A stretch of DNA of 64,000 nt. It comes from Thermoanaerobaculia bacterium (GTDB lineage Bacteria > Acidobacteriota > Thermoanaerobaculia > Multivoradales > Multivoraceae). The translations under genes were made by a program, and so were the position numbers. The stretch is from NCBI GenBank assembly GCA_963664405.1, contig OY761158.1, positions 544,001 through 608,000 of the forward strand, written 5' to 3'. The notes beneath the pieces were generated by a model that saw only the letters and a list, made by a program, of their open reading frames with translations, was not told the origin of the DNA and searched no databases. Shown in pieces: positions 402 to 21,547 of the stretch (positions are counted from its first letter, which is position 1; the number at the start of each line of letters is the position of its first letter).

Positions 402-3217
402 TTGAGCTCCACAGAACAGGTCCGCTGGGCTGACAAGATCGACCAGCTCATTGCACTCTCGGACGATGAGGAGCGCGAAGCGTTCTTTGCGAAGCATCCT
501 GAAGTCTGTTGTTCGGAAGTGGCGCGACAGCTGGGTCGCAGAACCACGAAACTGGCACACATGGACATCCCCGCGGCAAGCCGTGCGGGTGAGACGCTTA
601 GACAGCTTGGAGGTCTTTCTCAGGAGGAGCTCTATCTGAGGGCTACAGCCAGCGCACGCTGGCGGCTATCAGTCAGCTCCAGGGCGTCGACTATAACGTC
701 CAGCTCAAACACCTAAGAGCGGCGATCAAGCACTTCGAGTCGGCCTCGAGAGAGGATGAGGTCGCGATCACTTGCTCCAACGGACTCATGGCGCTTGCGA
801 TCCTAGGGGAGCACGATCTCCTGAAGGCTTGGGAGCAGCGAGCCAGACGCTATTTTGAATCGCACTCAGATCGGCTCCGCCTAGGCCGACTCGAGCTAAA
901 TGTTGGCAACCTGGCAGGCTGGCAATGTAAATGGCAGAAGGCAGTAGACGCCTACCGCAAGGCGCACCGTCTAATGCTTCTCGCGGGCGCAGAGCAAAGT
1001 GACGAACTAGCCGCACTCGCCAACCTCTCTTTCTGCCTCCTGAAGCTTGGCGATCTGTCCGCGGCGACGTCACTGATCGAGAAGACTCTTACTATCGGCC
1101 AGGAAAATGGCTGGGACCTTGATGTCGCTACGGCAGAAGCACAGCTAGCGCGACTCAGGTACCTTCAGGGCGACTTCAGATCAGCCCTCGACCTCGCAAG
1201 AACGGCAAGAACACGCTATCGGCGACACGGTTCACTCCACAGCGAAGCCCAAGTATCCGTAGCGGAAGCGGACATTCTCCTCGCGATCTGCGCACCTGAA
1301 CAGAGCGAAGCGCTGGCGCATCGGGCTCTAAGGGATTTTGAGCAGATCGGCGTTCCACTTGAGATAGGTAACGCCCTTTTGAGACTCGGGCATTGTGCGA
1401 ATTGTAAGATGAGACACCGCCTCGCACTCCGCCTCTTTCGACGCGCGAAGAAGCTCTTCAAAGAATCTCACAGCACAGCGAAGTCACTGCTGGCTAGCTA
1501 CTACATCGCTGCAACACTTAACGATCTCGGTCGCTACTCGCATAGCCGGCGGGAGGCAGAACGGGTCCTCAGGACGCCCGATTCGCGTTCGGGAACCTTT
1601 CTTCCCGTTCAGTGCCGCCTTCTACTTGGAAAACTGGCGCTAGAGCGGGGAGACGTCGAGGATTGCATCGACAACGTCGACTTGGCGCTGCGTAACATTA
1701 ACTATCTCGACTCGGCGATGATGGAAGCCGAAGCCTTCCTCGTGCTAGGTGCGGCGAGAGAGCAAGCAGGCCTGCCCGAACAGGCATATCACTCATATCA
1801 GCGATCGGAACGCAGCCTCGAGGGCGCCCGAAGGTTTCTCTCGACCGGTGAACTAGCGATCTCCTTCCTAGGCGACAAGTTGGAGGTATACGAAGCTCTT
1901 TTTGACCTCGCCCGCAAGCAAGGCAACCTCAAGGAGGCGATCTATTTCGCAGAGAAAGCTAAATCGCGAACTTTGTCGGACCTGATGCGAGAAGAGGTCC
2001 AGGATGGGAGCGGCGGTAACCGGAACCGGGATCTGAGCCCTTCGCCACTGAACAGTAGGCTGAGAGGCTACGAGAAGAGGATTCGGGAGCTCGAGTTCTC
2101 GGACGAACGCGACGTACTCGGGCAAATTGCGAGGCTGCGGGAACTCGCGAGTGACCTAACCGGGACTGCAAGCGGAGACGTGCCGAGGAAAGCAGAGAGA
2201 TTATTTGGTAGGTCGTCGCCAACTGACCAGAAACGGCCGGAGAACGTCCGAGAGTGCCTGGGGAGCGGAGAAACCCTCCTCGAATATTTCTTCTCACGAG
2301 GAACCGTATTCGCAATCGTTGTCAGTCGAGAGAACCTACAAATCGTACCCGTATCGTCAGTCTCCCGCGCTGAGAAGGTCCACCGCCTCCTCATGGCGAC
2401 TCTCTCCAGGCGTGAGGCGGAGTCGCATCTCGACAGCAGCACGCACTACCTCCAGCAACTCTACGAGCTACTCTTGGCCCCAGTCCGGCCTCTCCTCGAG
2501 GGTCCGAATGTTGTCGTCGTTCCCCATGACTTTCTCCACCAGTTACCCTTCCACTCCCTGTTAGACGGCAGTTCGTACCTCGTCGACCAATTCAGCTTTA
2601 GCTACGCGCCAAGTGCAGAAAGCCTTCGATTAGCGCGCCTGAGACCTCCCAGTAAGAACGAGGGGATTGCGGTTTTCGGACGTTCAGATGCCACCGCTCC
2701 CAATATCGCTGACGAAGTCCGTTCCCTAAACGAGCTTCTTCCCAACTGTCGCGTCTTCCTCGATGGGGATGCGACACTAGAGCGACTGCAAGAGTCGTGT
2801 CGCGAGGCCCGGTGGATTCACGTCGCAGCGCATGGACTCTTTCGAGAGGCGGATCCGGCGGCCTCTTCGATGAAATTGGACGGTTTTCTACTTTCGCCCA
2901 ACAGACTGCGCAACCTCGAACTGCAAGCCGACCTAGTTGTCCTGAGCGGCTGCAGCACAGGCCGGGGAGTGATTCGAGGCGCGGATGAGATACTCGGCCT
3001 CTCGAGGAGCCTCCTCGAAGCGGGAGTTAGATCCACAGTTGTCAGCCTGTGGGACGTTGACGACGCGGTCACAGCGGCGCTGATGCCCTCGTTCTATCGA
3101 GCTCTCCAACAAGGAGAGTCCTACAGCGATGCGCTTCGAAAGGCAATGCTAGATATTAGGCAGGTCGCACCTCATGTGTCCTTGTGGGCACCGTTCGCTC
3201 TCATGGGAGCCGGCTGA
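402..3217 (+). CDS. TPR-CHAT (caspase HetF-associated) protease 1, catalytic dyad intact, apparent 1-bp frameshift near 637
   Basis: ORF 788..3217 has TPR repeats and CHAT motifs (AEKAKSRTL, VVPHDFLHQLPF, HVAAHG, LVVLSGCSTG, SLWDVDD, WAPF). Its frame extends upstream to ~602 (EGYSQRTLAAISQLQG...) and matches CHAT2. ORF 402..716 matches the CHAT2 N-terminus. Confidence 0.85.
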
Positions 3218-3323
3218 GCTGCTAGCGAGCTCTCCAAGTGTTAGACTCGCCCAAGACGGTTCCACACCCCCGCCGAACCGCCGCTGTGGCAAGTGCCGTC
3301 TACGTCATCCGCACGGACTTGCA

Positions 3324-6176
3324 GTGTCTTCAACGTCCAGCGCACCGGAGCTTGTCGCTCCTCTTGTCGAGAGCCTCCAGCGTCTTCCAGAAGGCCAAGT
3401 CGGAGAGTTTTTCCACAACAGAAAAGAGCTCGTCACCCGTTCGACTGTCGAGGATTTGACAAGAGAAGCGACGAGGCTGCTAAGAATTGACCTGGAACTC
3501 TCTCGGCGCCTCTCCGAAGCGTCACTCTGGCTCTCGGAACAACTCGACGACGACTACTCTCGCGCCAAAGCCCATCGAGCAGCCGCCAACCTAGCTCACG
3601 CTCAGGGTCGACACACGGAAGCCCTTGAGCGCTATCGCAGAGCCCGATCCCTCTTTGAACTAATCGGAAACCAAGAAGAGGCCGCGATCACCGCGAGTTC
3701 CTCGCTGCAGGCTCTCACTTACGTCGGCGATCACGAGGCTGCCTTCGCCGAAGCCAAATTCGCGCGAACAACGTTCGAGCGCGTTGGCGATCGCTTGCGG
3801 CTGGCCCGCCTGAACTTCAACTACGCGAACATTCTTCACCACAGAGACCGATGGGCCGAGGCGGCGGGCCATTACGAGGACGCCTATCGCGACTTTCTGG
3901 AAATTGGGGAGAAGGAGGACGTTGCGGTTTGTCTCGGCAACATGGCTGTTTGCCACCAAAAACAGCAGGACTTCGTACAGGCACTCGCCTTCTATGAACG
4001 AACCCGGGAGTTCTGCGAAGAGAACGGGCTGACTGTCCTAGTGGCCGACATCGACTACAACATCGCTTACCTCTACTACCTGCGTGGCGAATACACTAGG
4101 GCACTCGAGCTCTATAGGGAGGCGAGGGTCAAGCACCGAGAGCTAGGTGACCGACACCATGAGGATCTGTGTGCTCTCGACGAAGCAGAGATCTACCTTG
4201 AGCTGAACCTGACAGTCGAGAGCGCGGATCTCGCGGGCTCAGCGTTCGATGGTTTTCAGCAAAGGGGCCTTGTTCATGAAAGCGCGAGAGCACTGACGAA
4301 TCTTGCCTTGGCGGAAGGTCGCCAAGGTAAGTCTTTTCTCGCCCTAGAATTGCTGGGCCAGGCAAGAGATCTCTATTCACAAAACGAGAACCATGTTTCG
4401 GCGGCGCTTGTTGACCTGTACAAGGCCGGTGTGCTCTATCGAGCGGGACGTCCTTTCGAAGCGAGAAGCTTCGCGAGTCAAGCAGGATGCGGTTTCGGAG
4501 AAGCCGGCCTCGCCACCAAGCAAGCCGCGTGTGAGCTTCTGTTGACACGGATCTCTCTCGATGACGGCGACCTAACTGCCGCCGCAAAACACAGCCAGTC
4601 GGTACTAGAGAAACTCTCGCTGGTCGATGCACCCAGCCTCTCTCATCTTGCGTATCTGCTGCTGGGAGAGATCGAGGAGCGCCTTGGCAATGCCGTCGGC
4701 GCCAAGGAAGCTCTGACTCAGTCACACGAACAGCTCGAGAGAATCAGAGGTCCGATGCAGACCGAGGAACAGAAGGTCGGATTCCTCGACGACCAGCTCG
4801 TCGTCTACGAGAGTCTGGTCAGCGTGATCCTCCAAGGGGACGACTCTTCAGAAGAAAAGGAAGAGGCCTTTGCCTGGGCAGAGAAGGCAAAGTCCAGAAG
4901 CCTTGCAAATCTCCTCGCGTTTCGAGCTCATCTCCTGCCCGCTACCTCGCCCGGGCGCAGCAAGCTGGCAGACCAGGTCAGACAGCTCCGCGAAGAGCTC
5001 AACTGGTACTACCGGCAGATCAATCTCCAAGAAATGCGGAGCGACGCTCCCTCAACCGAAGGCGTCGAAGCTCTGCGTGCCTACAGCAGGCAGCAGGAAG
5101 GTCGCCTCATCCGCACCCTTTCGCAGTTCCAACAGGACGATCAGGAGTTTCGTTCGCTGCAGGAGGGTCTCACCACCGACCTCGAAACGATCAGGCGCGA
5201 CCTGTCATGGGGTACAACGCTGCTCGAGTACTACGTCGCTCGAGGAACGGTATACGCACTGATCGTCGATCACCGCACGATCGAGATCGTCCCGCTCACA
5301 CTCGAGAAGACGGTACGTGGGCTCAGCGGGCTACTGCGCTCCGCGCTCTCGCGGCGCCGCGATACGAGCGACCTGCGACATCGTAAGGAGTCCGCCGCAT
5401 TCGAGTATCTTGCGGCCCTGTACGAAGAGCTCGTGGCGCCAGTGCACGACCTCCTGCGGGGTCCATCTCTAGTGGTGATTCCACACAGTCTACTCTTCTA
5501 TCTTCCCTTCCACGCATTCCCCACCGGCTCCGGCTACCTCGCCGACGAATTCACGGTGTCGTACGCGCCAAGCGCAACAGTTTTTCATCTATCCAAGATC
5601 AAAGACCCGAGCGACGACGCTACTGGTACCGTGTTTTTCTGCCCCGATGACACGCGAACCGACCTTCTCGAGCTGGCGGCAGCTATCAAGAGACTCGAGC
5701 CCGATACTGAGCTGATACCTGGGCAGCAAGCGACCGGAGAGGCACTCCAAGCCAGGGCGAGCAAAGCTCGCTTCATCTATCTGTCGGCGCAGGGCCATTA
5801 TCGAGAAGACAATCCAATGTTCTCGTCTCTCGAAATGGGAGGCGGATCGATCCACCTTTTCGATCTCTTTCAGCTTCATCTGCGAGCCGACGTAGTGTCA
5901 CTGCTTGGCTGCGGACCAGGGCTGAACACACAAGGCAAGGGTGACGAAGTGGTGGGCCTGGTCCGCGGCCTCCTGTACGCGGGAGCTCGCTCCGTAGTGA
6001 CGACCGTTTGGGACGTCGAGGATTCCACCGCCGCCGAGTTCTCTTCCGCCTTCCACCGACACCTCCAGAACGGAGAGAGCAAGGCACTCGCGACCAGTCT
6101 CGCCATCACCGAGCTCAGGAGCAGGCACCCCGACCCCTACCACTGGGCTGGATTCGCGCTCTACGGTGAGGCCTAG
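3324..6176 (+). CDS. TPR-CHAT protein 2, probable pseudo-protease (catalytic His replaced by Gln)
   Basis: TPR repeats plus a CHAT domain (AEKAKSRSL, IPHSLLFYLPF, IYLSAQGH, LLGCGPG, WDVED, HWAGFALYG). GTG at 3324 chosen as the likely start; the ORF is open from 3174. Confidence 0.85.
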   Translation: MSSTSSAPELVAPLVESLQRLPEGQVGEFFHNRKELVTRSTVEDLTREATRLLRIDLELSRRLSEASLWLSEQLDDDYSRAKAHRAAANLAHAQGRHTEALERYRRARSLFELIGNQEEAAITASSSLQALTYVGDHEAAFAEAKFARTTFERVGDRLRLARLNFNYANILHHRDRWAEAAGHYEDAYRDFLEIGEKEDVAVCLGNMAVCHQKQQDFVQALAFYERTREFCEENGLTVLVADIDYNIAYLYYLRGEYTRALELYREARVKHRELGDRHHEDLCALDEAEIYLELNLTVESADLAGSAFDGFQQRGLVHESARALTNLALAEGRQGKSFLALELLGQARDLYSQNENHVSAALVDLYKAGVLYRAGRPFEARSFASQAGCGFGEAGLATKQAACELLLTRISLDDGDLTAAAKHSQSVLEKLSLVDAPSLSHLAYLLLGEIEERLGNAVGAKEALTQSHEQLERIRGPMQTEEQKVGFLDDQLVVYESLVSVILQGDDSSEEKEEAFAWAEKAKSRSLANLLAFRAHLLPATSPGRSKLADQVRQLREELNWYYRQINLQEMRSDAPSTEGVEALRAYSRQQEGRLIRTLSQFQQDDQEFRSLQEGLTTDLETIRRDLSWGTTLLEYYVARGTVYALIVDHRTIEIVPLTLEKTVRGLSGLLRSALSRRRDTSDLRHRKESAAFEYLAALYEELVAPVHDLLRGPSLVVIPHSLLFYLPFHAFPTGSGYLADEFTVSYAPSATVFHLSKIKDPSDDATGTVFFCPDDTRTDLLELAAAIKRLEPDTELIPGQQATGEALQARASKARFIYLSAQGHYREDNPMFSSLEMGGGSIHLFDLFQLHLRADVVSLLGCGPGLNTQGKGDEVVGLVRGLLYAGARSVVTTVWDVEDSTAAEFSSAFHRHLQNGESKALATSLAITELRSRHPDPYHWAGFALYGEA

Positions 6177-6264
6177 GTGTACTTCATTGCCGCTGCATCC
6201 GGCTATGCCACACGCATGGCCGGGTTAGCGGAGATGAAGAGATTTGCATATACTGTGAAGTTCT

Positions 6265-6987
6265 ATGACTCTAGAGCTCTCGGCACCCGGCTCCTTAGTT
6301 ACCCGAGCGAGGGAGAAGAACCCTCGTCTCGCTCACCTCCAGCGAAGAAGGCTGGAGGAGGAGCTGAAGTCGGTAAAGACGGGGATCATGTGCGCGCTCA
6401 ATATGCTGCTGGATCTCAAAAATCTGCGCACTGGATTGCACGCGACACGCCTCGCCGAATGGGCGGTCCTCGCAGCCGAGAACCTAGGAGTGGATGAGAG
6501 TGAGCTCCGAGATATCGAGGCCGCATCTCTTTTACACGACATCGGCAAGATCGGTCTCCCGGATTCCATTCTGCTGAAGCCGGGAAAGCTCTCCGATGAA
6601 GAGTTCGCGATCACCAAGAAGCATCCCGAGTACGGCTGGGCAATCCTGAGATCGATTCCCGGACTCGAGAAAGCCAGCCTCTTGGTGCTGCATCATCACG
6701 AACGTTTCGACGGTAGGGGCTACCCCTCGGGCCTAGCGGGAGAGAACATCCCTCTCGGGTCTCGCATCGTGGCCGTCGTCGATGCCTTCGACGCCATGAT
6801 CTCGAGCCGCGCCTACCGAGACGCCCTGCCCCTCGAAGAGGTGCTTCGCCGCCTCGACGCCGACACCGGCAGTCAGTTCGACCCCAAGATCACGCCCTTC
6901 TTCATCGAGCTGTCGAAGGAGCATCTGCCCGAGCTGATGAAGCGCGACGAAGACGTCCCCGCCGGCCTGGCCCGGGTTCTGCCTTAG
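6265..6987 (+). CDS. HD-GYP domain protein (cyclic-dinucleotide phosphodiesterase family)
   Basis: HATRLA, LLHDIGKIG, HHHERFDGRGYP, RIVAVVDAFDAM, QFDP motifs. Confidence 0.92.
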   Translation: MTLELSAPGSLVTRAREKNPRLAHLQRRRLEEELKSVKTGIMCALNMLLDLKNLRTGLHATRLAEWAVLAAENLGVDESELRDIEAASLLHDIGKIGLPDSILLKPGKLSDEEFAITKKHPEYGWAILRSIPGLEKASLLVLHHHERFDGRGYPSGLAGENIPLGSRIVAVVDAFDAMISSRAYRDALPLEEVLRRLDADTGSQFDPKITPFFIELSKEHLPELMKRDEDVPAGLARVLP

Positions 6988-7188
6988 TCTCGGCTCTCCA
7001 CTGGCCCATACACATCTTTGCATTGGCTCAAGCGACTGGGCTACAATTACTGGTTAGCCTTTAGGGGTCAAGCGGATTTTCCGCACAAAGACCCTTTGAA
7101 ACACCTTCTCCCGCGTTACGGCGGGGGTAGGAAATCAGTACTGCGCTTTGGCGCAGTAGCTGCGCATTGTATTAATAACAAAGGAGTT

Positions 7189-7284
7189 ATGCATGTATCA
7201 GCCACACACGAAGACCGGTCATTCCGTCAGTCCAATCCTGGAGTAAGTGCTCCGATAGCGATTCTTATAGGAGACACGACATGA
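7189..7284 (+). CDS. possible 31-aa small ORF at the head of the peptide array (MHVSATHEDRSFRQSNPGVSAPIAILIGDTT)
   Basis: AAAGGAG lies just upstream but with unusually short spacing. Its stop overlaps the next ATG (ATGA). It lacks the shared leader and core motifs. Confidence 0.3.
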   Translation: MHVSATHEDRSFRQSNPGVSAPIAILIGDTT

Positions 7285-7448
7285 AGATCAAAACGGACCT
7301 CCGAGGCGGCTATTCGTCGCCCAAAGCCGATTCAGAACGGCCAAGCAACAACCCGCAGGAATACTGCATTCAACGCCCATCGTCGCTTCTTTGGCCCCCC
7401 TCCGCTATCACGCAGACGGGTAACTGCGTCGCGGCGATTCTCGAATAG
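7281..7448 (+). CDS. peptide precursor, long type 1 (55 aa) MKIKTDLRGG-YSSPKADSERPSNNPQEYCIQRPSSLLWPPSAITQTG-NCVAAILE
   Basis: RBS AGGAG, ATG 7281, TAG 7446-7448; double-Gly-type leader; C-terminus shared with neighbouring ORFs. Confidence 0.8.
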   Translation: MKIKTDLRGGYSSPKADSERPSNNPQEYCIQRPSSLLWPPSAITQTGNCVAAILE

Positions 7449-7479
7449 AAACCCAACCTAAACCTAGATCGGAGAAGAG

Positions 7480-7533
7480 ATGAAAAACCTAGTCCTAAAG
7501 ACAGGCAACACCGTAGCAGCCATCTTGGAATAG
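7480..7533 (+). CDS. peptide precursor, short type B (17 aa) MKNLVLKTG-NTVAAILE
   Basis: RBS GGAG, ATG 7480, TAG 7531-7533; same VAAILE C-terminus as the long types. Confidence 0.75.
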   Translation: MKNLVLKTGNTVAAILE

Positions 7534-7574
7534 TGGCTCCACAATACCGAACGCGAATTTTTCGAGGAGATCCG

Positions 7575-7631
7575 ATGAACGTCAAGACCAACGTCAAAGC
7601 TGGTTCCCATCTCAACCACATCATGGAATAG
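7575..7631 (+). CDS. peptide precursor A copy 1 (18 aa) MNVKTNVKAG-SHLNHIME
   Basis: RBS GAGGAG; three synonymous differences from the other copies. Confidence 0.85.
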   Translation: MNVKTNVKAGSHLNHIME

Positions 7632-7666
7632 CCCTAGCTAACTCAACAGATATTTGGAGAAATCAA

Positions 7667-7723
7667 ATGAACATCAAAACCAACGTCAAGGCCGGTTCCC
7701 ATCTCAACCACATCATGGAATAG
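7667..7723 (+). CDS. peptide precursor A copy 2 (18 aa) MNIKTNVKAG-SHLNHIME
   Basis: RBS GGAG; conservative V-to-I change in the leader. Confidence 0.85.
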   Translation: MNIKTNVKAGSHLNHIME

Positions 7724-7759
7724 CCCTTAGCTAACTCAACAGATATTTGGAGAAATCAA

Positions 7760-7816
7760 ATGAACGTCAAAACCAACGTCAAGGCCGGTTCCCATCTCAA
7801 CCACATCATGGAATAG
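7760..7816 (+). CDS. peptide precursor A copy 3 (18 aa) MNVKTNVKAG-SHLNHIME
   Basis: RBS GGAG, ATG...TAG in a 93-bp repeat unit. Confidence 0.85.
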   Translation: MNVKTNVKAGSHLNHIME

Positions 7817-7852
7817 CCCTTAGCTAACTCAACAGATATTTGGAGAAATCAA

Positions 7853-7909
7853 ATGAACGTCAAAACCAACGTCAAGGCCGGTTCCCATCTCAACCACATC
7901 ATGGAATAG
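7853..7909 (+). CDS. peptide precursor A copy 4 (18 aa) MNVKTNVKAG-SHLNHIME
   Basis: RBS GGAG, ATG...TAG in a repeat unit. Confidence 0.85.
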   Translation: MNVKTNVKAGSHLNHIME

Positions 7910-7944
7910 CCCTAGCTAACTCAACAGATATTTGGAGAAATCAA

Positions 7945-8001
7945 ATGAACGTCAAAACCAACGTCAAGGCCGGTTCCCATCTCAACCACATCATGGAGTA
8001 G
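7945..8001 (+). CDS. peptide precursor A copy 5 (18 aa) MNVKTNVKAG-SHLNHIME
   Basis: RBS GGAG; final Glu codon is GAG instead of GAA (synonymous). Confidence 0.85.
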   Translation: MNVKTNVKAGSHLNHIME

Positions 8002-8008
8002 CGCAGTC

Positions 8009-8179: not shown

Positions 8180-8223
8180 GTTTCTTTGAAGGGGGAGCCG
8201 CAGTGCTCCAACCCGACAAGGAA

Positions 8224-10433: not shown

Positions 10434-10461
10434 TGTTACCGGCTACGAGAAAGCGCACTTA

Positions 10462-13598: not shown

Positions 13599-15072
13599 CG
13601 TCGTTGCCTCCAAGTTGGTCGTAGTCCTCGAGGTTGTGCGGTCTCACGGAGAGATCTCGCTGTTGGAGCTCCTGGCTGAGCGGCACCGGTAAAGCCGGGG
13701 GCTGACCGAGGCCGCGCTGGTGCCGTTCGAGTAGGAGCCGGACGGACTGGAATCGCGGTGCGTGGTTCAGGAGCGCTTCGCGCACGGCTTTGTCGAGTCG
13801 CTGGGGGCCGTACTGGCGCAGGAGTCGGAGCAGGCCGGCGGTCTGCGTTCCGAGGTTCTCGCCTCGCTCGGCGAGCTGCTGCATCAGCTCTTCGCATCGA
13901 GGCACAGCGGAAAACAGCCGATGGAAGCCCCGGTGTCGTCGGGCCCTGCGTTTGTGAGCGAGGAGCTCCTCGAGGTGTTGAGGATCGAGGATCTGCTCGC
14001 CCCGGGAGTACGAGCGAGGGTGCTCGGCGAGGAGCTCCTGGCCATCGAGGATCCGCACCCGATGCTCGCTGGCGAGGAGCGTGACGGTCCTCTGCACATG
14101 ACTGTGCGGCACCGAGTAGTCGTTGAGGTCGAAGCGCACGATCGGCGTCTTTCTGACCTTGATCTCCAGTCGCAGGTCGGTTTCGAAGTCGTCTCCGGGA
14201 AGCTCAAGCAGTCGAGGTCGTTCCTGGGCCAGGGCGCTTTTCACGGTTCGCTGTCGGTCCTGCGGCCAGGGTCTGCGCTGCGACCTCTGGCACCATTCCA
14301 GGACCTGCCGATTCAGACGATCCAAATCGCTCACCGTTCGGGCGCCGAAGAACGAGCTTCGCAGGAAGCGGATTGCGCGCTCGACGCGGCCTTTCTCATT
14401 TCCCCGAGCCACCGCGGCGACGGTGGGAAGGAAGCCGTAGTGGCTGGCGAAATCGAGCAGCACGGGATGGAAGCGCACCGCGGTTCCCTGCCGCTCGATC
14501 ACCGCGGTTCGCAGGTTGTCGTACAGAACGGTCCTGACGACGCCGTCGACGTAGTGGAAGGCCAGCTGGTGAGCGTGCAAGAAGGTTTCGAGACGAGTGT
14601 CGAGGGTGAAGTGCACGAAGACCGTGCGCGAGAACGACAGCACGAAGACGAAGGCATAGAGCCGACGATGTGCCCGGCCGACGCGGAGCCGACCGAAGTG
14701 GCCCCAGTCGACCTGCGCCTGCTCTCCTGGCAGCATGCGCAGCGAGAGAAACGCCTCGCGCTGGGGCTTCGGTCGCATCGAGGCCACCAGGTGGCGAAAC
14801 TGATCCGGGCCTCCTGGATAGCCGCGCTCCACCACCATGGTGTAGAGACGGCTCGCCGGCAGTCGTGGGTAGGTCCCGAGCACCTGCTCGATGAACGGCA
14901 GGTAAGGATCGATCATCCTCCCTCGTCGCTGCTGGGGTAGCACGCCGGACTTCTCCAGCGCCCGGCGCACGGTTGAGGGGTGCAGCTGTAGCTGTCGAGC
15001 GATCGTGCCGACTTTCCACTTCTCGACCAGGAACAGACGACGGATCTCCCCGCGCAGCTGTGCGTCGATCAC
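13564..15072 (-). CDS. istA: IS21 transposase IstA
   Basis: PGEQAQVDWG, LYDN, KGRVER, YSVP; probable GTG start at 15072. Confidence 0.95.
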   Translation of the reverse strand: MIDAQLRGEIRRLFLVEKWKVGTIARQLQLHPSTVRRALEKSGVLPQQRRGRMIDPYLPFIEQVLGTYPRLPASRLYTMVVERGYPGGPDQFRHLVASMRPKPQREAFLSLRMLPGEQAQVDWGHFGRLRVGRAHRRLYAFVFVLSFSRTVFVHFTLDTRLETFLHAHQLAFHYVDGVVRTVLYDNLRTAVIERQGTAVRFHPVLLDFASHYGFLPTVAAVARGNEKGRVERAIRFLRSSFFGARTVSDLDRLNRQVLEWCQRSQRRPWPQDRQRTVKSALAQERPRLLELPGDDFETDLRLEIKVRKTPIVRFDLNDYSVPHSHVQRTVTLLASEHRVRILDGQELLAEHPRSYSRGEQILDPQHLEELLAHKRRARRHRGFHRLFSAVPRCEELMQQLAERGENLGTQTAGLLRLLRQYGPQRLDKAVREALLNHAPRFQSVRLLLERHQRGLGQPPALPVPLSQELQQRDLSVRPHNLEDYDQLGGNDDGPTQEESNDP

Positions 15073-15076
15073 GCCC

Positions 15077-15472
15077 CTATCTCCGTCGGCAACGACGAAA
15101 GCTCGTTCGCACAAACTCTCGGCAGGCCTCTCCACACTGCATGCATCGCGGATTCCTCGGGTCGTAGCGCACTTCGCGCCTCGGAGTCTCGATCCGACAC
15201 AGTGTCCTCCCCGAAGTACCGCCTGGGGTACCCTGATGCGTCACTTTCTCTGCCCGCTCGCGCTGGCGCCGACGGTAGCGGGCCTGACGGGCGGCATGAC
15301 AATGCCGACCTCGGAGGCTTCGCTGGTACCGATGGCCGGCCGCCCGAGTCGATTCCCGACGAGCCACCAGAGCACAAGCCCGGCAGTAACGCTGGCCACG
15401 GTCACAGTGCGAGCACAGCGAGATACGCCGACGGCATCGAGCACAGTCGAAGAGTCGGTAGTCCGGTCGCAT
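15077..15472 (-). CDS. Cys/Arg-rich accessory ORF upstream of istA
   Basis: CARC...CSHCDRGQRYCRAC...CMQC; GGGAGG RBS; present in both IS copies. Confidence 0.6.
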   Translation of the reverse strand: MRPDYRLFDCARCRRRISLCSHCDRGQRYCRACALVARRESTRAAGHRYQRSLRGRHCHAARQARYRRRQRERAEKVTHQGTPGGTSGRTLCRIETPRREVRYDPRNPRCMQCGEACREFVRTSFRRCRRR

Positions 15473-15769
15473 CGTCGCCTCCCATTCGACGACGACCCCG
15501 ACTCTCTGCCATACTGCAAGCGCAGCTAATGCTGCGGTTTGGGGCAGAGCCCGGGGCGTTTTCTACTTCGCTTTCCCGGGCTCTCGCCGTCTCTGGTCGG
15601 CCTGCTCTATCAGAGCAGAGCCCGCACTGCAAAGCCCTACACCGACTCACGCATCTCTTCCGACCGCAAACACGCCGCCGGGACCACGCACCCGGACCGC
15701 CGTTCCGGCGGGATGATGCCGCCCTTCCTGAAGAAGGCCTAGCTTTCCCGCGGTCGCGAAGCCCTCAGC

Positions 15770-18478
15770 TCACTCCATCCCGGAAACTGCGCTCGCAGCC
15801 AACGGGATGCGCTTTCTCGCAGCCATCAACAGGCGCCAACGAGCACCCGACCACATCTCATTCCGTGCCACCTCGTCCGCCGTGAGCAACGCGGCGTAAC
15901 GACTCTCCGGCTGTCGCGCCAACTCCTCCGGCTTCCCCTGCTCAACAACTCGGCCACTTTCCATCACCAGCACTTTGTCGAACGCCAGAGTCTGCCGCAT
16001 GTCATGGGTGACGTAGAGCAGCGTCGCACCACTCCACAGTGCCCTACAACGCTGCAAGAGAAGGTTTCGATCGTGTCGATCAACCCCTCGAAATGGCTCG
16101 TCAAGCACGACGAGGCGCGCCTCGGGCCTCATCATGCCGCGCCCCAGCCGCACCCGCTGGCCCTCTCCTCCCGACACCAACCCTCCGCCTTCGCCGAGGG
16201 TGGTCTGCATGCCGTCGGGCAAGCTCTCGAGGACCTCCTTCAGCAACGCCGCTTCGATGACTCCACCGAACCCCTCCCGACGCGCGCTGTAACGAAGGTT
16301 CTCTACCAAAGAGCGATTCCAGATCCTCACACCCGGATCGACCCACGCGGTATCGGCGCGAAGGCGCTCGAGCCTGGCAGGGCCGAGCGGAGCATCATCG
16401 ACGAGCAGCTCGCCGGTGGCCGGCCGATACCAGCCGAGAAGAAGCCCCACCAGAGTCGATTTCCCAGAGCCCGACGGCCCGACAATCGCCACGTGCTCGC
16501 CCGCTTGCACCTCGGTCTGAACGTCACGCAAGATCGGGTGCCCGCCGACCACGACGCCAAGCTCACGCATCCCGATCGTAATCCCTCCACCGAGGCGGCC
16601 CTCCACAACATCCTCGGCGCCCGCATCCTCCTCAGGAGTCGACGCACCCAAGGGCTCGAGCAACCTCAGAGCGACATTGCGCTGCCACGGGTACCGACTC
16701 CACAAGGCGGCGATCTCCTGAGCCAGGGCCGGCAAGCTCAAGGCCCAATAGACGAGTAAGAGTACGGTGCCTGCCGATGCGGAACGCTGCAAATGGGACA
16801 GAACAAGAACGACCACCAGTCCAAAACCGACAAACTGCTGAAGTCCCTGGAGTGAGGCGATCAGGCGCTGCAGCCGAAAACCGGCTCGAGACCACTCACT
16901 GACCAGGATCTCGTGCTCTCTTTGCACCACACTCTCCGCCGAGTGAGCGCGGACCGCGACAAGGCCAAGCAGGCCGTCCAGGTAGAAGCGCGTCAGCGCG
17001 CCGGCGTGACTGCGCAAACGAAGATCGCGCTCAACCAGAGAGCGGTGCGCTAGGAGTGGAATTGCCAACGCTGCTACCGCGGCTCCGATCGCCCATGGCG
17101 CGCTGCGTGGGTCGAGCCAGATGATCCCGGCGGTCACCAGCACCAGCTCGAAGCTGGCCCTCAGGAGCTGGCCGACCAGAGGCGTCACATTACGCAGCTG
17201 ATGAATGGCGTGGCTGCGCTCAGCCATGTCCGAGCTCAAGCGGCTCGAAAAGTAACGCTCGCCCAAGGCGGGCAACTTGCGTAAGAAAGCGATCCGCAGG
17301 CGCAGCTCGAGGCGACGACCCAGACGCAATAGACCCTGCGCAACCGGAAAATCCAGTAGCAGCAGAAGGAAGGCCAGAGAGCCGACCGCCAACACAGCGC
17401 CAAGGCGCTGCACCGAAAGTTCCAGCTGAAGCCCGAGATCAAGTACCGACCGCAGTAGCAAAGCTTCGAGCAATACCCCGCCCGCCGCCACCGCGGTCGC
17501 GCCGATCAGCACCGAAGGCGCCAGCAAACCGTCCTCGCGTAGAAGCTCCAAGAGCTTCCGTCCCGGACTCGCTCCGGTCTCACGGAGGGTGGCTAAGACA
17601 CTCTCTGGGGCGACACCCGCGGCCTCGCCCCGCGACTCTCCCGCATTTGCGCCCGCCCCCTTCTCGCCGTCTCGACGTCCTTTGATCCTGACCAGTAGCG
17701 ATCCGACAAGAGCAAGATCGCCGCTCTGACCGTCAGCCCCAGCCTTCGCGGTCGCGGGCCTCACCGACCAATAGGTTTCCGGAACCTCCTCGGCACGCGC
17801 GCCTTCGAGAGCCGCCAGAGCCTGGCTACCTGCGTCGAGTCCCCCGGCCCTCACCAGTGCATCAACCATACGAGTGGACGCATCAAGCAGTGCGATCGAC
17901 TTCCAGCTCTCATCTTCGAAAGCATGATCCACGATCTGCGCCCCGCCGCCCTTGGCCACCCCGACCCGATCCAGACGCCGCGTAAGCGCCCCTACGAACT
18001 CATCCGACTCGGTCCACTGTCGCCAACCCTCGCTCGGAACCACGAACTCATGGGCGTAGACCTCTTCGAGAAAGTCTCTCGCATGCACCCAGCGGCGGCC
18101 GATGGACGGGTCCATGACCTGAAGGTACGAGCCATGGCGCCGCCATGCCACAACGAAGTGAGTAGACCCGTTGGGTAGGCTGGTCACAACGATGGCAGGC
18201 AGCGCGCGGGCCTCGGGAATCAACAGGTGATCGCGGGGCACCATCACCTGCTCGGCATCGAGCCCGAGACTGCAGGCCAATTCTTCGAGAGTGTCGATCG
18301 AAGTGCCGTCGACATCGGTCTGGCAGGCCTCGCGGAGGCGGCCATAGCTAGCGTCAATGCCGTAGCCCCCCAGAATTGCCTTGAGCACCGCAGGACCGCA
18401 GTCCATGGCGGAGCTCTGGATTACTTCGGGGACAACAAGCTTCCGGCTTTGAGACTTTGGCAGTCGGGCTACCATCAA
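15770..18478 (-). CDS. peptidase-containing ABC transporter (C39 + TM + NBD); last 20 aa derive from the IS21 end
   Basis: QSSAMDCGPA (Cys), HFVV (His), MDP (Asp); GPSGSGKST, VSGGEGQR, LVVLDEP. Confidence 0.93.
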   Translation of the reverse strand: MMVARLPKSQSRKLVVPEVIQSSAMDCGPAVLKAILGGYGIDASYGRLREACQTDVDGTSIDTLEELACSLGLDAEQVMVPRDHLLIPEARALPAIVVTSLPNGSTHFVVAWRRHGSYLQVMDPSIGRRWVHARDFLEEVYAHEFVVPSEGWRQWTESDEFVGALTRRLDRVGVAKGGGAQIVDHAFEDESWKSIALLDASTRMVDALVRAGGLDAGSQALAALEGARAEEVPETYWSVRPATAKAGADGQSGDLALVGSLLVRIKGRRDGEKGAGANAGESRGEAAGVAPESVLATLRETGASPGRKLLELLREDGLLAPSVLIGATAVAAGGVLLEALLLRSVLDLGLQLELSVQRLGAVLAVGSLAFLLLLLDFPVAQGLLRLGRRLELRLRIAFLRKLPALGERYFSSRLSSDMAERSHAIHQLRNVTPLVGQLLRASFELVLVTAGIIWLDPRSAPWAIGAAVAALAIPLLAHRSLVERDLRLRSHAGALTRFYLDGLLGLVAVRAHSAESVVQREHEILVSEWSRAGFRLQRLIASLQGLQQFVGFGLVVVLVLSHLQRSASAGTVLLLVYWALSLPALAQEIAALWSRYPWQRNVALRLLEPLGASTPEEDAGAEDVVEGRLGGGITIGMRELGVVVGGHPILRDVQTEVQAGEHVAIVGPSGSGKSTLVGLLLGWYRPATGELLVDDAPLGPARLERLRADTAWVDPGVRIWNRSLVENLRYSARREGFGGVIEAALLKEVLESLPDGMQTTLGEGGGLVSGGEGQRVRLGRGMMRPEARLVVLDEPFRGVDRHDRNLLLQRCRALWSGATLLYVTHDMRQTLAFDKVLVMESGRVVEQGKPEELARQPESRYAALLTADEVARNEMWSGARWRLLMAARKRIPLAASAVSGME

Positions 18479-18683
18479 AAACCTCCCCTGAGCGGGAGAC
18501 CCGCTTCCTCGGTCGCTTCCCAGGCACTCTAGAGGGGACTGCGGTGACTGTCAAACCCCGATGAAGAAAGAGATTTTCTGACTTCGAGCCAGGTGGAATC
18601 TTGGACAGCTCCGACGGCGCTGGGCTAAGATCGCCTCCGAGCTTCTTGACTACCCTTATACTGGCGTCAAGATCTAGTTAGCT

Positions 18684-19316
18684 ATGACCGACTGGCAACT
18701 CACAGATCTCGTCGACTACCTCCGCGGCGCCAGCCATGCCGAGACCACGGAGGCAATCAAACAGGATCTCGCGGCCGGGAATCGAGAAGCCCGCGCCGAC
18801 CTCGACCTCTTCGGCGAAGTCGCAGCGGTGGTAAGCACCGACTTCTCCGACACCCCCCCCGAATCGGCCCTTCGAGCGGCAAGAGCCGCCTTCACCCTGA
18901 CCTCGCCCTTCAGCACCTCGGCACCTCCATTTCTAGAAACGCAAAAAATAGGGAACTCCGACGCGGCCTCGCAGACCGTCGGTTTGCGCGGACCGGCGAG
19001 AGATCACCAAGACCTGCACTTTCGCGGCGCAGGCTTCGATCTCGAGCTCAGCGTGGACATGCCGACCGAGAGCAGCGACGTCGTGATCGTCGGCCGCCTG
19101 TCGAAAGCGGCCTCGCAGCCGTGGAGCATCGATGAGGTGCCGGCTCTCCTCATCAGCCGCGACGAGCCCCTCGCCTCGACGGTGACCAACCGCTTCGGTG
19201 AGTTCCATGTGCAATGTCACAGCGAAGACAGCGTCGAGCTCCGCATTCTTGTCCCAGATCTTGGCCAGATTCGTATTCCCCTCGAGCTCCCCGAGTCGGG
19301 CGACGCCCCGTCCTGA
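18684..19316 (+). CDS. soluble anti-sigma-like protein (degenerate zf-HC2-type N-terminus, beta-rich C-terminal domain)
   Basis: LVDYLRG...EAIKQDLAAGNREA resembles an anti-sigma domain lacking Zn ligands; no TM segment; directly upstream of the ECF sigma gene. Confidence 0.55.
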   Translation: MTDWQLTDLVDYLRGASHAETTEAIKQDLAAGNREARADLDLFGEVAAVVSTDFSDTPPESALRAARAAFTLTSPFSTSAPPFLETQKIGNSDAASQTVGLRGPARDHQDLHFRGAGFDLELSVDMPTESSDVVIVGRLSKAASQPWSIDEVPALLISRDEPLASTVTNRFGEFHVQCHSEDSVELRILVPDLGQIRIPLELPESGDAPS

Positions 19317-19323
19317 AACACCA

Positions 19324-19899
19324 GTGACGGATCCGCCCTCCTCCAGCTGGGATGACGCAGCCCTAGTTGACGCCTGCATCAGCGGCAGTCAGGAGGGCTG
19401 GGACGCACTAATTCTCAAGTATCAGAACCTGGTGTGGGCGATCATCCGGCGCAGCGGGGCAGCCAGCGGTGAGGAGGAGGACGCTTTTCAGGCGGTATGG
19501 CTCGACGTCTACAACGAGCTCGAGAACCTTCGCAGTCGAGAGTCTCTGCAAGCCTGGATCGCCACCGTCACCCGCCACAAGTGCTACCACTGGCGCGCCA
19601 AGCGTCGAAGACTACCGCAGGGCCTAGACGAGACCTGGGCCAACGCGATCCCCGACCAAAACGCACTTCCAGAGGAGGCTCTCGAGCGACTCGACCGAGA
19701 TCAAAAGATTCGGCTGGCCATTCATAGCCTGCAGCCGGAGTGCCGGGAGCTCCTGGCCCGGCTCTTCCTCAGTGATCCTCCACGGCTCTACCGCGAGATT
19801 GCCGAAGAGCTTGGAATGGCGATCGGGTCGATCGGCTCGCTGCGGTCCCGATGTCTCGAGAGGCTCAAGGAGGAGCTGGTTCGCCAGGGGCTGCCGTAG
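19324..19899 (+). CDS. ECF-type sigma-70 factor
   Basis: DAALVDACISGSQEGWDALI, EDAFQAVW, AWIATV, YREIAEELGMAIGSIGSLRSRCLERL; probable GTG start at 19324. Confidence 0.92.
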   Translation: MTDPPSSSWDDAALVDACISGSQEGWDALILKYQNLVWAIIRRSGAASGEEEDAFQAVWLDVYNELENLRSRESLQAWIATVTRHKCYHWRAKRRRLPQGLDETWANAIPDQNALPEEALERLDRDQKIRLAIHSLQPECRELLARLFLSDPPRLYREIAEELGMAIGSIGSLRSRCLERLKEELVRQGLP

Positions 19900-20218
19900 G
19901 CTCGCCCAAGAAGTCCTCCGCCAGGATCGCCGTCGCCGCTTCGAGCTCGGACGCCGGCACCACCACGTGAACGGACCCCAGAGCGCCAAAGGTCACCGGC
20001 TCCTGATGATAGAGCAGAGAGTAGACCTTGGAGCGAACACCGCGACTCCGCAGAAGACCCGCCACCAGCGCAGCATCGTGCTCCGTGCCCTCGGTTCTCA
20101 CCACCTCCCACGCTTCGTCCGCGGGCCGCTCCGGCAGAGTCTCGACCAAATCGACGAGGCAGTCTGGGCAACGATCGATGCCGGATCGGAACTCGCCATC
20201 ACAGACCGGACAGAACAA
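19865..20218 (-). CDS. DUF2007-like small protein with N-terminal CPxC...CPDC
   Basis: MFCPVCDGEFRSGIDRCPDC; AALVAGLLRSRGV; VHVVVP. Confidence 0.7.
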   Translation of the reverse strand: MFCPVCDGEFRSGIDRCPDCLVDLVETLPERPADEAWEVVRTEGTEHDAALVAGLLRSRGVRSKVYSLLYHQEPVTFGALGSVHVVVPASELEAATAILAEDFLGEPTAAPGEPAPP

Positions 20219-20383
20219 GAGTTAGTGTCCTGTATCAGTGGTTCGTTGCATAAATCGCGCAGTCATTTTGTGGGCTGCCAAGGCGCGCCGACGAAGTCAT
20301 ATTGGGTATATTTCGAGGAGGTGCAACGACGGCAGGACGCAAAAGGGCCAGCGAGTTATGTGACGAACTACTGGTACAGGACA

Positions 20384-21547
20384 CTAGGCTCCCTCTACCA
20401 GTCTCCCGACCGACCTCAATACCAGTCCCAACGGTGACGAGCTCTCGACCTCGACCTCGAGCTCACCCGGCAATCCATGCTCGAGCACGATCCCGGCAGG
20501 CACGCCCGGTTCGATACTGAACTCCACTCGGACCCTGCCATCGCGGGCCTCTGAGTCTACGTTCGATACTCGAGCCTCGACGCTCCCGTAATGGGTCCAT
20601 GGGTACCCATCGAGCCGTAGGCGCGCACGTTGCCCCGGTCGGATGCGACCGACGGCCTTGCCGGGCTCGAACTCGGCCACCACGACATGCCCCCTGTCAC
20701 TCTCAGGCACGATCGCACAAAGCTGATCGCCCGCCGCAACGTAGGCGCCCTGGAGAAGAGACTCCGCGATCTTAGCGACCGTACCGCTGACGGGCGCTCT
20801 GATCGAGCGTTGCCCGAGCTCTACCTCTAGCCGCTCCTCGGTTCTTTCAGAAGTGTCGATCGAGCCGCGCAACTGACTTGCCTGCCGGTGCAGACCCTCG
20901 ATGTCACTCCGGCGATCCCTCTCCTCGATTCGCAGTTGCTCCTGACGCCGCGCCACCGCCGTACGACGCTGCGACTCGATCGCCTGAGCCATCGCCATCT
21001 CCGACTTCGCCTTCTCGAGATCTCGAACCGATTGCACCCCCTGCTCTTTCAGTTCCAGGACCTTGGCGTGATTGGAGACCGCGAACTCTCTCGCCGCCTC
21101 GGCTTCGTTCAAAGAGGCCTCCAGCTCCTCTACCTCCAGGCGGGCCGCGTTCTTCAACTGCGCCAGCGCCTTCTCCTCGGAAGCGATCTCGCCGCTGAGG
21201 TCGGTCAACTCCGATTCGCTCCCTCTACGCGCGGACTGCCTCTCGGCCAATTGCAGCTCCTCGGTGCGGGGGTCCAACTCGAGCAGAAGGTCACCGGCTT
21301 CGACTCGTCTCCCCAGCGAGATGTGAGTCGCGACAACTCTTCCAGATACGGGCGCGGCAACCGCATGGCTCGCGCCACGAACCTCCACCCGAGCCGTCTC
21401 ACTCACTTCGTAGAGAGAGATGCTGGCGAAGAAGAACCACAAGCCCCAGGCGGTCAGGAGCAACAGCGAAGCCACCAGCATGACTGCTGAGAACCGGAAC
21501 GAATCCGCCTCTAAGGAGCGCGCAGAGCGTGAGAATGGGATCGCCAT
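20384..21547 (-). CDS. HlyD-family membrane fusion protein
   Basis: N-terminal TM, VAAPVSGRV, coiled coil, IRAPVSGTV, YPWTHYG. Confidence 0.92.
   Translation of the reverse strand: MAIPFSRSARSLEADSFRFSAVMLVASLLLLTAWGLWFFFASISLYEVSETARVEVRGASHAVAAPVSGRVVATHISLGRRVEAGDLLLELDPRTEELQLAERQSARRGSESELTDLSGEIASEEKALAQLKNAARLEVEELEASLNEAEAAREFAVSNHAKVLELKEQGVQSVRDLEKAKSEMAMAQAIESQRRTAVARRQEQLRIEERDRRSDIEGLHRQASQLRGSIDTSERTEERLEVELGQRSIRAPVSGTVAKIAESLLQGAYVAAGDQLCAIVPESDRGHVVVAEFEPGKAVGRIRPGQRARLRLDGYPWTHYGSVEARVSNVDSEARDGRVRVEFSIEPGVPAGIVLEHGLPGELEVEVESSSPLGLVLRSVGRLVEGA

Follow-up and report, generated by a model that had tools for sequence, protein, structure and literature searches.

A micro-gene array for putative octapeptides beside a TPR-CHAT pair and an ECF sigma factor in an acidobacterial genome: a candidate peptide-signalling circuit

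In the RRNPP quorum-sensing systems of Firmicutes (Rap/NprR/PlcR/PrgX), an exported peptide undergoes subtilisin-type processing, is imported by Opp and reaches a cytoplasmic TPR receptor. A C39-type transporter and a CHAT protease take part in the cyanobacterial peptide signalling of PatS/HetC/HetF, and the yeast alpha-factor precursor carries tandem pheromone copies that are processed by the S8 protease Kex2. In type III-E CRISPR (craspase), the TPR-CHAT protease Csx29 cleaves Csx30, which holds a sigma factor of the extracytoplasmic function (ECF) type. Here, a locus was analyzed in a 64,000-nt stretch of DNA (hereafter, the window) from a soil-type Thermoanaerobaculia bacterium (GCA_963664405.1, contig OY761158.1, positions 544,001-608,000 of the forward strand), in which eight micro-open reading frames (micro-ORFs) and a C39 peptidase-ABC exporter (PCAT) lie together with two TPR-CHAT paralogues (CHAT1 and CHAT2), an HD-GYP protein, an ECF sigma factor and an anti-sigma-like protein (asig). 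The sensing part of this locus is, by sequence comparison, orthologous to a widespread acidobacterial operon of opp, ECF, TPR-CHAT, asig and secreted S8 protease genes. Octapeptide export joined to caspase-like sensing and sigma control seems to be a peptide-signalling design not described before.

The genes of the locus, called from an ORF listing together with Pfam and NCBIfam scans, were the following.

402-716, + strand: 5' fragment of CHAT1, in another frame than the rest of the gene
788-3217, + strand: CHAT1, TPR-CHAT protease paralogue (CHAT E=5.3e-62, TPR_12 E=7.4e-14)
3174-6176, + strand: CHAT2, TPR-CHAT paralogue (CHAT E=7.6e-38)
6265-6987, + strand: stand-alone HD-GYP protein of the cyclic di-GMP (c-di-GMP) phosphodiesterase type (HD_5 E=2.6e-42; HHERFDGRGYP)
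7281-7448, + strand: micro-ORF 1, 55 residues, beginning MKIKTDLRGG and ending in QTG followed by NCVAAILE
7480-7533, + strand: micro-ORF 2, 17 residues, MKNLVLKTGNTVAAILE, with KTG before NTVAAILE
7575-8001, + strand: micro-ORFs 3-7, 18 residues each, MN(V/I)KTNVKAGSHLNHIME, with KAG before SHLNHIME (starts at 7575, 7667, 7760, 7853 and 7945)
8009-8179, + strand: micro-ORF 8, 56 residues, beginning MKIRTDIKAG and ending in KTG followed by QAVAAILE
8256-10424, - strand: ABC2, partner ABC exporter (ABC_tran; C39 domain not recognisable)
15770-18478, - strand: PCAT (Peptidase_C39 E=1.6e-20, ABC_membrane, ABC_tran)
18684-19316, + strand: asig, 210 residues, anti-sigma-like, without a Pfam or NCBIfam match
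19198-19899, + strand: ECF sigma factor (TIGR02937, 76.4 bits against a cut-off of 42.9)
20384-21547, - strand: HlyD-type membrane fusion protein of the exporter (HlyD_3 E=1.9e-16)

The circuit proposed for these genes would begin with the eight micro-ORFs as precursors, whose 9-10-residue leader (in the window, M-K/N-x-K/R-T-N/D-x-K/R-A/G-G) or internal K-T-G would be cut by the C39 domain of PCAT. The resulting octapeptides, xxxxxI(L/M)E, would be exported by PCAT, ABC2 and HlyD, and after re-import would act on the TPR-CHAT pair, with CHAT1 as the active protease and CHAT2 as a paralogue without activity that would serve as sensor or scaffold. By cutting or inactivating asig, the two would set the ECF sigma free, and the HD-GYP protein would add a further output by reducing c-di-GMP. 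For the ancestral operon, the proposed octapeptide would derive from, or mimic, the QSTxxILD repeats that the S8 protease carries in a flexible loop, and would be taken up by Opp. In the window's family, which comprises the window genome (G000, 6.78 Mb), its sister genome (G001) and G006, the micro-ORF array with a borrowed KAG-leader exporter would have taken over the role of S8. Cleavage at KAG, export, re-import, binding of the peptide by TPR and proteolysis of asig are steps that we infer from the sequences; the gene content, the conserved linkage, the leader family, the likeness of the octapeptides and the lesions of this strain are seen in them directly, and binding of asig to the ECF sigma is a model prediction.

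The whole two-module circuit has, in our estimate, an even chance of being correct. Put forward more tentatively, and falling somewhat short of that, is the proposal of a new peptide quorum-sensing design, in which an octapeptide QSTxxIL-D/E supplied by S8 repeats or by a micro-gene array would be re-imported by Opp, and a cytoplasmic TPR-CHAT protein would read it, destroy a soluble asig and free an ECF sigma. If this is true, TPR-CHAT proteases acquire a physiological function beyond CRISPR and phage defence, peptide cell-cell signalling exists in a major soil phylum where none is known, and a secreted protease carries its own pheromone repeats; the circuit would be a CRISPR-independent relative of craspase signalling and the first RRNPP-like circuit with a protease receptor. 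Two large unannotated families were also defined, namely the 10-residue leader of micro-peptides across several phyla and the anti-sigma-like family with its 3,035 clusters.

A circuit of exported peptides, CHAT proteases and a released sigma factor had already been suggested in a first-pass annotation of this DNA. All the genes it listed (two TPR-CHAT genes, HD-GYP, eight micro-ORFs, PCAT, ABC2, ECF sigma and HlyD) were present, and the circuit appears plausible on the evidence of the sequences. The conserved ECF-CHAT-asig unit, the predicted binding of asig to sigma, the KAG leader end and the peptide-traffic context (opp, S8) speak for it, whereas the exporter turned out to be independent and the DUF2007-like gene dropped out of the system. 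The Opp/S8 context and the putative origin of the octapeptide were added in the present analysis.

The likeness to craspase lies in a cytoplasmic TPR-CHAT protein whose gene accompanies that of a soluble partner which, by prediction, holds an ECF sigma, and in the idea of protease-driven sigma release. There are also differences: family scans of the window (1-35 kb) and of the module loci examined yielded neither Cas7-11 nor CRISPR genes, no CRISPR-specific search having been made; the proposed input is a peptide here and target RNA in craspase; and asig is a 210-residue protein with a four-helix domain and a beta-sandwich. The Csx29 model NF041237 gave 41.7 and 40.2 bits against a cut-off of 300, which is short of membership. 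PADLOC returned only weak domain-level matches (BovA, subtilase). The DdvA/DdvS system of Myxococcus xanthus also brings together TPR-CHAT, an anti-sigma domain and an ECF sigma, and there, too, proteolytic sigma release is proposed, not demonstrated (PMC11506125). DdvA spans the membrane as one protein whose TPR-CHAT region is periplasmic, and it controls a cyclic-oligonucleotide-based anti-phage signalling system (CBASS)/CRISPR island (PMC11506125); here, CHAT and the anti-sigma protein are soluble products of separate genes instead of one transmembrane chain, and the neighbours are opp, S8 and a peptide exporter. The literature searched for a CHAT domain together with ECF and anti-sigma yielded only DdvA and type III CRISPR systems, and the TPR-CHAT literature since 2023 comprised craspase, DdvA, unrelated uses or reviews. 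The main text of an ECF re-classification (PMC7826278) is without the words 'caspase' or 'oligopeptide'; its supplementary tables may list such contexts.

With the RRNPP systems, the proposed circuit shares the logic and not the family, TPR repeats being present and the output domain being CHAT. The proposed output here is a caspase-like protease acting on an anti-sigma protein, whereas that of RRNPP is a helix-turn-helix domain or a phosphatase; moreover, the hosts are Acidobacteriota, and the peptide source is S8 repeats or a micro-ORF array with a C39 exporter. The export genes resemble the double-glycine leader/PCAT systems (ComC/ComAB, class II bacteriocins, NHLP/Nif11) in their C39-ABC, HlyD and second ABC proteins and in a leader ending in a pair of small residues. 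The leader here differs in having only 9-10 residues and a consensus of its own, MKxK(T/S)NVKAG. Compared with alpha-factor and Kex2, it is the S8 protease that contains the repeats, in the segment separating its catalytic Asp from its His.

The combination of ECF sigma, TPR-CHAT and asig, which had been proposed from the window alone, was found as a conserved unit well beyond the window genome, in G112, G184, G533 and metagenome loci. Of 151 genomes of the class searched with CHAT2, G000 among them, one, G112, held a true orthologue, located between an ECF sigma and an asig homologue; when 401 genomes of the phylum, again counting G000, were searched with asig, the gene was recovered in G184, G307 and G533. 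The gene order in G184 was OppD, OppF, OppB, OppC, the substrate-binding protein (SBP) SBP_bac_5, ECF, TPR-CHAT, asig, Peptidase_S8 and HD-GYP; G307 carried the same set in a different order, and G533 had OppB, OppC, SBP, ECF, CHAT, a sigma-54 regulator, asig and S8. The ECF, CHAT and asig genes adjoin in G112, G184 and G533, and S8 follows asig in G112. In G006, which holds the locus in two copies, OppB-OppC-SBP lies directly upstream of CHAT1-CHAT2-HD-GYP-array-ABC2-PCAT. The window ECF sigma was 35-57% identical to the module ECF proteins, the window HD-GYP was 57% identical to that of the G184 module, and CHAT2 was 35-42% identical to the CHAT proteins of G112, G184 and G533; CHAT2 is the paralogue closest to the single CHAT of the ancestral module.

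The same arrangement was observed in metagenomes scanned with the asig alignment, where more than 294 relatives were found, 80 loci were fetched, and counts were made on those with enough flank. CHAT lay directly upstream of asig in 27 of 35 loci, ECF upstream in 26 of 33 and SBP_bac_5 upstream in 14 of 20, and S8 followed directly downstream in 45 of 47; HD-GYP was present in 4.

The asig family numbered 3,035 representative clusters when the threshold was E<=1e-3, and 431 when it was tightened to E<=1e-30. The 13 close relatives returned were all unnamed or 'hypothetical', and neither the window protein nor four relatives had a Pfam match; the Atlas clusters were likewise 'hypothetical', one of them carrying zf-HC2 on 27% of its members. 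In an alignment of 13 rows, the four relatives outside the window's family (G112, G184, G307 and G533) contained the zinc motif HxxxCxxC, which is, on these sequences, lost in the window's clade. The AlphaFold2 model of asig (predicted local distance difference test, pLDDT, 82.7) consisted of four N-terminal helices (residues 6-73), followed by a linker of low confidence and then a beta-sandwich. In the PDB, no Foldseek match reached E<=1e-3, the rows obtained being beta-sandwiches only, and a profile run against the PDB sequences yielded a single weak hit, likewise a beta-sandwich.

Co-folding, which had been named as a check of the sigma/anti-sigma pairing, predicted that asig binds the ECF sigma. 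The complex scored 0.78 (runs 0.79, 0.78 and 0.77), the best of 3 controls 0.00; of 80 solved complexes, 58 attain such a mark, as do 2 of 110 mismatched pairs. Contact agreement was at least 93%, partner pLDDT at least 81, and residues 5-78 of asig contacted sigma regions 2 and 4. Since sigma/anti-sigma complexes have already been solved, the score may partly reflect likeness to known structures and indicates such likeness more than binding as such. The window asig lacks the profile and motif of class I anti-sigma proteins (ASD/ZAS; zf-HC2, HxxxCxxC), and in the model its helical N-terminus clamps regions 2 and 4, as in that class; asig is thus predicted to clamp the ECF sigma in an anti-sigma manner. 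The partner has regions 2 and 4 of an ECF sigma, and its best solved relatives were ECF sigmas. From the sequences compared, its true start is probably near 19336, conservation beginning at residue ~47.

Two further arrangements of asig were noted. The metagenome proteins P0105 and P0162 hold asig, a hydrophobic segment and a repeat-bearing S8 in one chain of 677-687 residues and, going by sequence, would be transmembrane anti-sigma proteins with an outside protease domain. In L160, L173, L189 and L207, asig-S8 has no CHAT/ECF upstream and stands beside a divergent CHASE3-GAF histidine kinase, with a YflT-like protein in L173 and L189; this kinase may be a second wiring of the asig-S8 pair.

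In the columns of the catalytic dyad, CHAT1 reads 'AAHG' and 'SGCS' and has kept both His and Cys, as has the single CHAT of G184 and G533. The CHAT2 orthologue of G006 lacks both residues, and CHAT2 is probably a pseudoprotease, to judge from these columns. The HD-GYP protein contains HD_5 and the HHExxDGxGYP motif, from which its activity is predicted. No hydrophobic segment was found in CHAT1, CHAT2, asig, ECF or HD-GYP, while S8 and SBP carry N-terminal signal-like segments; as CHAT, asig and ECF have no such segment, the switch would be cytoplasmic.

The link between the two modules came from the S8 proteins, where units of eight residues (QSTxxILD) recur in tandem in the stretch that separates the catalytic Asp from the His. 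Examples are QSTDSILD, QETTPILD, QSTAAILD, GSVVSILD and QSTAAMVD, with QSTAHILE in G112. At least two octapeptide motifs within 110 residues occurred in 31 of the 33 module S8 ORFs, against a background in the window genome of 19 of 6,686 long frames with at least two motifs, one with three and none with four or more. Among the other long frames of the S8 loci, 25 of 708 reached two motifs, and those with 4-6 units are probably S8 frames missed by the S8 filter. The repeat loop had a pLDDT of 43-49 in an otherwise confident model (pTM 0.84).

A scoring matrix was built from 22 distinct S8 octamers, whose last three positions were part of the selection rule, and was applied to the C-terminal octamers of the window's family. 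QAVAAILE scored 14.2 (random fraction 5e-6), QAVSAILE 12.2 (1e-5), NTVAAILE and NCVAAILE 8.7 (1.7e-4), QSSCAITE 7.7 (2.5e-4), QSIDCIKE and QSIDCINE 0.4 (0.006), and SRGVPIQE -6.1 (0.046). Hence, five of the nine distinct octamers stood above the 99.9th percentile of random octamers, and on the first five positions alone the best random fractions were 0.0009 to 0.003. The 64 C-terminal octamers from other PCAT loci had a median of -18.1 and a maximum of -1.7. These scores indicate that the xxVAAILE class clearly resembles the S8 units and that the tandem-array class does so only loosely. Repeat-bearing S8 was not found in G000, G001 or G006 and was found in G112. Given this likeness of the cores to the S8 repeats, and with no repeat-bearing S8 found in the window's family, the array with PCAT appears to replace S8 as the peptide source. 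The searched literature contained no paper in which the S8 octamers or the leader string are printed.

The five 18-residue genes are arranged as a tandem repeat with a period of 93 bp (4.6 copies, 97% matches), and a GGAG stands 8-12 nt upstream of the ATG of each micro-ORF. A strict leader, M(K/N/R/Q)x(K/R/Q)(T/S)x(V/I/L/M)(K/R/Q)(A/S/V/T)G, was defined, and all 6 strict and all 7 looser matches in the 6.78-Mb genome lay at this locus. Every micro-ORF peptide listed for G000 or G006 has I-x-E at its C-terminus, and the homologue of micro-ORF 8 in G006 ends in KTG followed by QAVSAILE. In the second G006 copy (L022, G006:C1:1-10200) of CHAT2/HD-GYP/peptide/ABC2/PCAT, CHAT2 and HD-GYP are each split over several frames, and the micro-ORFs are reduced to two, MKIRTNVKVGQSIDCINE and MKIKTSVKVGQSSCAITE.

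Orthologues of PCAT were present in 7 of 40 related genomes (E<=1e-140), and a scan of one genome per species gave 73 loci (L037-L109), mostly in Acidobacteriota, others in Planctomycetota, Verrucomicrobiota, Myxococcota and Pseudomonadota. As had been anticipated, leader-bearing small ORFs accompany PCAT homologues: 51 of the 73 loci contained 94 such peptides, mostly of 16 residues, and five shuffles of all PCAT loci gave 0 matches to the strict leader. Among the 22 loci without it, a few have variants (GTG start, KTG) and several others are cut contigs. The cores differ between groups and have 6 residues in most Acidobacteriota: Acidobacteriaceae and Bryobacteraceae have xxxWGA, Pyrinomonadaceae have DPPIIxxGG (one locus holds 14 genes), and Gammaproteobacteria have NRCDTVRR; one verrucomicrobial and one myxococcal locus encode multi-core precursors with an internally repeated leader.

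PCAT has the N-terminal C39 domain, transmembrane region (five transmembrane-like windows) and nucleotide-binding domain of its class, with the motifs MDCGPA, THFVV and MDPS (Cys/His/Asp) read by eye in the translation. Its substrates carry a leader ending in GG/GA/AG, as is typical of that class at the sequence level, and their cleavage is predicted. ABC2 also has five transmembrane-like windows, and its N-terminus weakly resembles a C39 domain (E=0.021). HlyD stands just upstream of PCAT in the listed loci and ABC2 orthologues follow PCAT in related ones. When ORFs were clustered over 76 loci (the 73 fetched, the window and the two G006 copies), only ABC proteins (72 loci) and HlyD (52 loci) recurred, with no conserved tailoring family.

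The position of the leader end was indicated by L038 (Isosphaeraceae; 15667-16180 and 16584-18829), where two microviridin-like precursors and two MvdD ATP-grasp genes accompany HlyD-PCAT-ABC2. In these precursors, PFFARYL and, further on, VKTNVKAG stand before a TxKWPSDDDE core; because this graspetide core directly follows KAG, KAG is taken as the end of the leader. L080 (Pseudomonadota; 4222-5895 and 7284-7430) has a variant precursor, MKKIKIKSGVKTGRSCW, and, upstream of its exporter, a FAD-dependent, tryptophan-halogenase-like gene, which makes a modified Trp peptide a possibility there. None of the NCBIfam models matched the 14 peptides of at least 20 residues (12 related ones and the 55- and 56-residue precursors of the window). 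The unknown neighbour genes at distant loci had no Pfam match.

As a lead only, a TPR protein was seen beside the exporter in 7 of 19 diverse loci scanned (L039, L041, L068, L075, L077, L084 and L108). These proteins stand alone or carry a kinase or winged-helix domain, and sigma factors lie beside the cassette in L038 and L039. In L032 (15534-16448), a 304-residue ORF that looks TPR-like by eye lies between an XRE-type-looking regulator ORF and HlyD.

A bipartite element, CCTATATTT-N13-15-ACCCTTT, was found between CHAT and asig in 62 of the 80 metagenome loci, with 67 hits against 27 in three shuffle sets. It occurred once per locus (e.g., L129:332, L134:9627 and L136:7599), just after CHAT and, in most loci, immediately ahead of asig; in G533 (L136), the sigma-54 regulator comes between the element and asig. 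The element is likely the promoter of the asig-S8 unit. It was not found before the peptide array of the window. Its -10-like word occurred once in the window, within chance. Intergenic alignments revealed no promoter shared by the peptide array and the ECF sigma.

Several observations weigh against the proposed circuit. CHAT2 has Gln ('SAQG') in place of the catalytic His, the window asig reads QDLAAGNREA where its relatives have the zinc motif, and the window match to the promoter element was weak (8.4 at 18624, against 19-23 in relatives). The octamer of the tandem array, SHLNHIME, scored -4.4 (random fraction 0.028), or 0.18 on the first five positions, which is not significant. Co-occurrence of PCAT with paired TPR-CHAT and ECF/asig, which the first-pass annotation had expected, failed to hold, the exporter cassette being an independent and far more widespread module: among the 76 clustered loci, the clusters with CHAT were confined to the window and G006, those with ECF/asig to the window and G001, and no PCAT orthologue (E<=1e-60) was found in G112, G184, G307 or G533, which are 97-100% complete. 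The asig-ECF pair of G006 lies on another contig, with no exporter within ~9 kb, and no CHAT2 orthologue was found in G001, a 91% complete genome whose contig ends inside ABC2. The window genome has no orthologue of the module opp/SBP genes, its best SBP match being 24% identical and ~35 kb away. In the metagenomes, 8 of 35 asig loci have no CHAT upstream, and 4 of these 8 have a CHASE3-GAF histidine kinase instead. Finally, CHAT1 is frameshifted in the window strain, and the CHAT1 of G006 has a separate frameshift between His and Cys.

Such separation raises the question of whether two unrelated modules merely adjoin, the exporter peptides serving another purpose and ECF-CHAT-asig-HD-GYP sensing something else. 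Each module is widespread without the other, asig-ECF is unlinked from the rest in G006, and the array and the ECF sigma have no promoter motif in common. The xxVAAILE cores nevertheless resemble the S8 repeats of the sensor module; that S8 was not found in G000, G001 or G006, of which G000 and G006 show the micro-ORF array; and the array has CHAT-CHAT-HD-GYP as its neighbour in G000 as well as in each of the two G006 copies. We regard a chance neighbourhood of this kind as unlikely. Still less probable is a protein-foraging regulon, in which S8 would free peptides from outside proteins, Opp would import them, TPR-CHAT would sense them and ECF would raise S8/Opp, the micro-ORF peptides being a side branch or decoys. 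The secreted S8 and the complete opp importer within the conserved operon would suit it, but it leaves unexplained both the tandem octapeptide repeats in nearly all the module S8 ORFs (31/33) and a dedicated array with exporter where S8 is missing.

The genes could also form an ordinary bacteriocin cluster or one for peptides that ribosomes synthesise and that are modified after translation (RiPPs), making antimicrobial or modified products under regulators that control only their production. The same leader and exporter do serve graspetide-type precursors in L038, FAD-dependent, halogenase-like enzymes lie beside them in L080 and L041, and the best NCBIfam matches, all far below their cut-offs, were those of the NHLP/Nif11 bacteriocin export cassette (TIGR03794/03796/03797; 192 against 853.3, 94.7 against 709.4 and 37.6 against 156.2). 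A tailoring enzyme consistently found beside homologous arrays would have pointed to such a cluster; none was conserved across the 76 loci, tailoring enzymes being present only in some distant ones (L038, L080 and L041), and the Pfam and NCBIfam scans agreed with the earlier statement that 402-21547 contains none, as was also the case in G006. The only radical SAM gene beyond SelD (28474-29517) adjoins EF-P and an EpmA-like gene. With cores of just 8 residues, or 6 in most Acidobacteriota, and no immunity-like gene seen, this explanation is quite improbable. Caspases prefer an acidic residue at P1, and by analogy with the micro-ORF cores the S8 units would end in Asp/Glu; the CHAT proteins might then be maturation enzymes, not sensors, that cut long precursors or S8 repeats at acidic unit boundaries, the 55-56-residue precursors needing a second cut before the last octamer in any case. 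That second site, KTG, looks like a C39 site, CHAT has no signal or transmembrane segment whereas S8 has a signal sequence, and the tightest partners of CHAT are ECF and asig (27 of 35 loci), so that a maturation role is very unlikely.

Other features within and next to the locus were the following.

10429-15831, no strand assigned: nested insertion, an IS21-family insertion sequence (IS) interrupted by an ISAzo13-family element, recognised from transposase families and contig joints
19865-20218, - strand: Cys-rich small ORF, DUF2007-like (17.7 bits against a cut-off of 25.7)
21619-23853, - strand: SelD fusion gene

To describe the state of the locus in related strains, contigs from the public runs X1, X2, X8 and X10, from four studies, were compared with window positions 301-20300; the short-read contigs leave the tandem-array stretch 7632-7967 uncovered. 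X1 and X2 (two studies) were identical to the window, and X8 and X10 (two further studies) showed 33-109 differing letters per 2-4.5-kb piece, a divergence of ~1.5-2.5%. The contigs of X8 and X10 join 10428 directly to 15832, which identifies the 5,403 bases skipped as a strain-specific insertion; the 5.4-kb IS block recognised in the first-pass annotation is therefore real and absent from sister strains. The block holds an ISAzo13-family transposase, IstB and IstA. X1 and X2 contigs join 10457 to 12466 at ~210-255x depth, and IS parts appear to be high-copy in these samples, their depth being ~210-450x against ~6x in the flanks. The nesting consists of a 2,008-bp ISAzo13-family element inside the IS21-family element, and a second pair of IstA/IstB-sized ORFs (523 and 269 residues) lies at 50033-52364.

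With the joint at 15832, the tail of PCAT would be IS sequence and ABC2 would be cut off from PCAT. PCAT orthologues align up to residue ~884-891, and the last ~20 PCAT codons would, going by the sequence, be supplied by the insertion. The N-terminus of the G533 CHAT aligns to 432-629 in the frame of 402-716 and then to 632-1195 in the frame of 788-3217. X8 and X10 lack two letters at 630, whereby 402-716 and 788-3217 share one frame, and the CHAT1 frameshift is thus limited to the window's strain among these contigs. The circuit is probably impaired in the window strain by the CHAT1 frameshift together with the insertion between PCAT and ABC2.

The DUF2007-like ORF, earlier counted as a member of the system, was rejected, as its score was below threshold and no counterpart was found in G001. 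An ORF at 3-323, previously called thuA-like, had no family match in the Pfam scan. Beyond SelD, the window is occupied by housekeeping genes. The fusion partner of SelD is a pyridine nucleotide-disulfide oxidoreductase domain (TIGR03169, 397.6 bits against 310), and a small TPR protein is encoded after it at 24369-24980.

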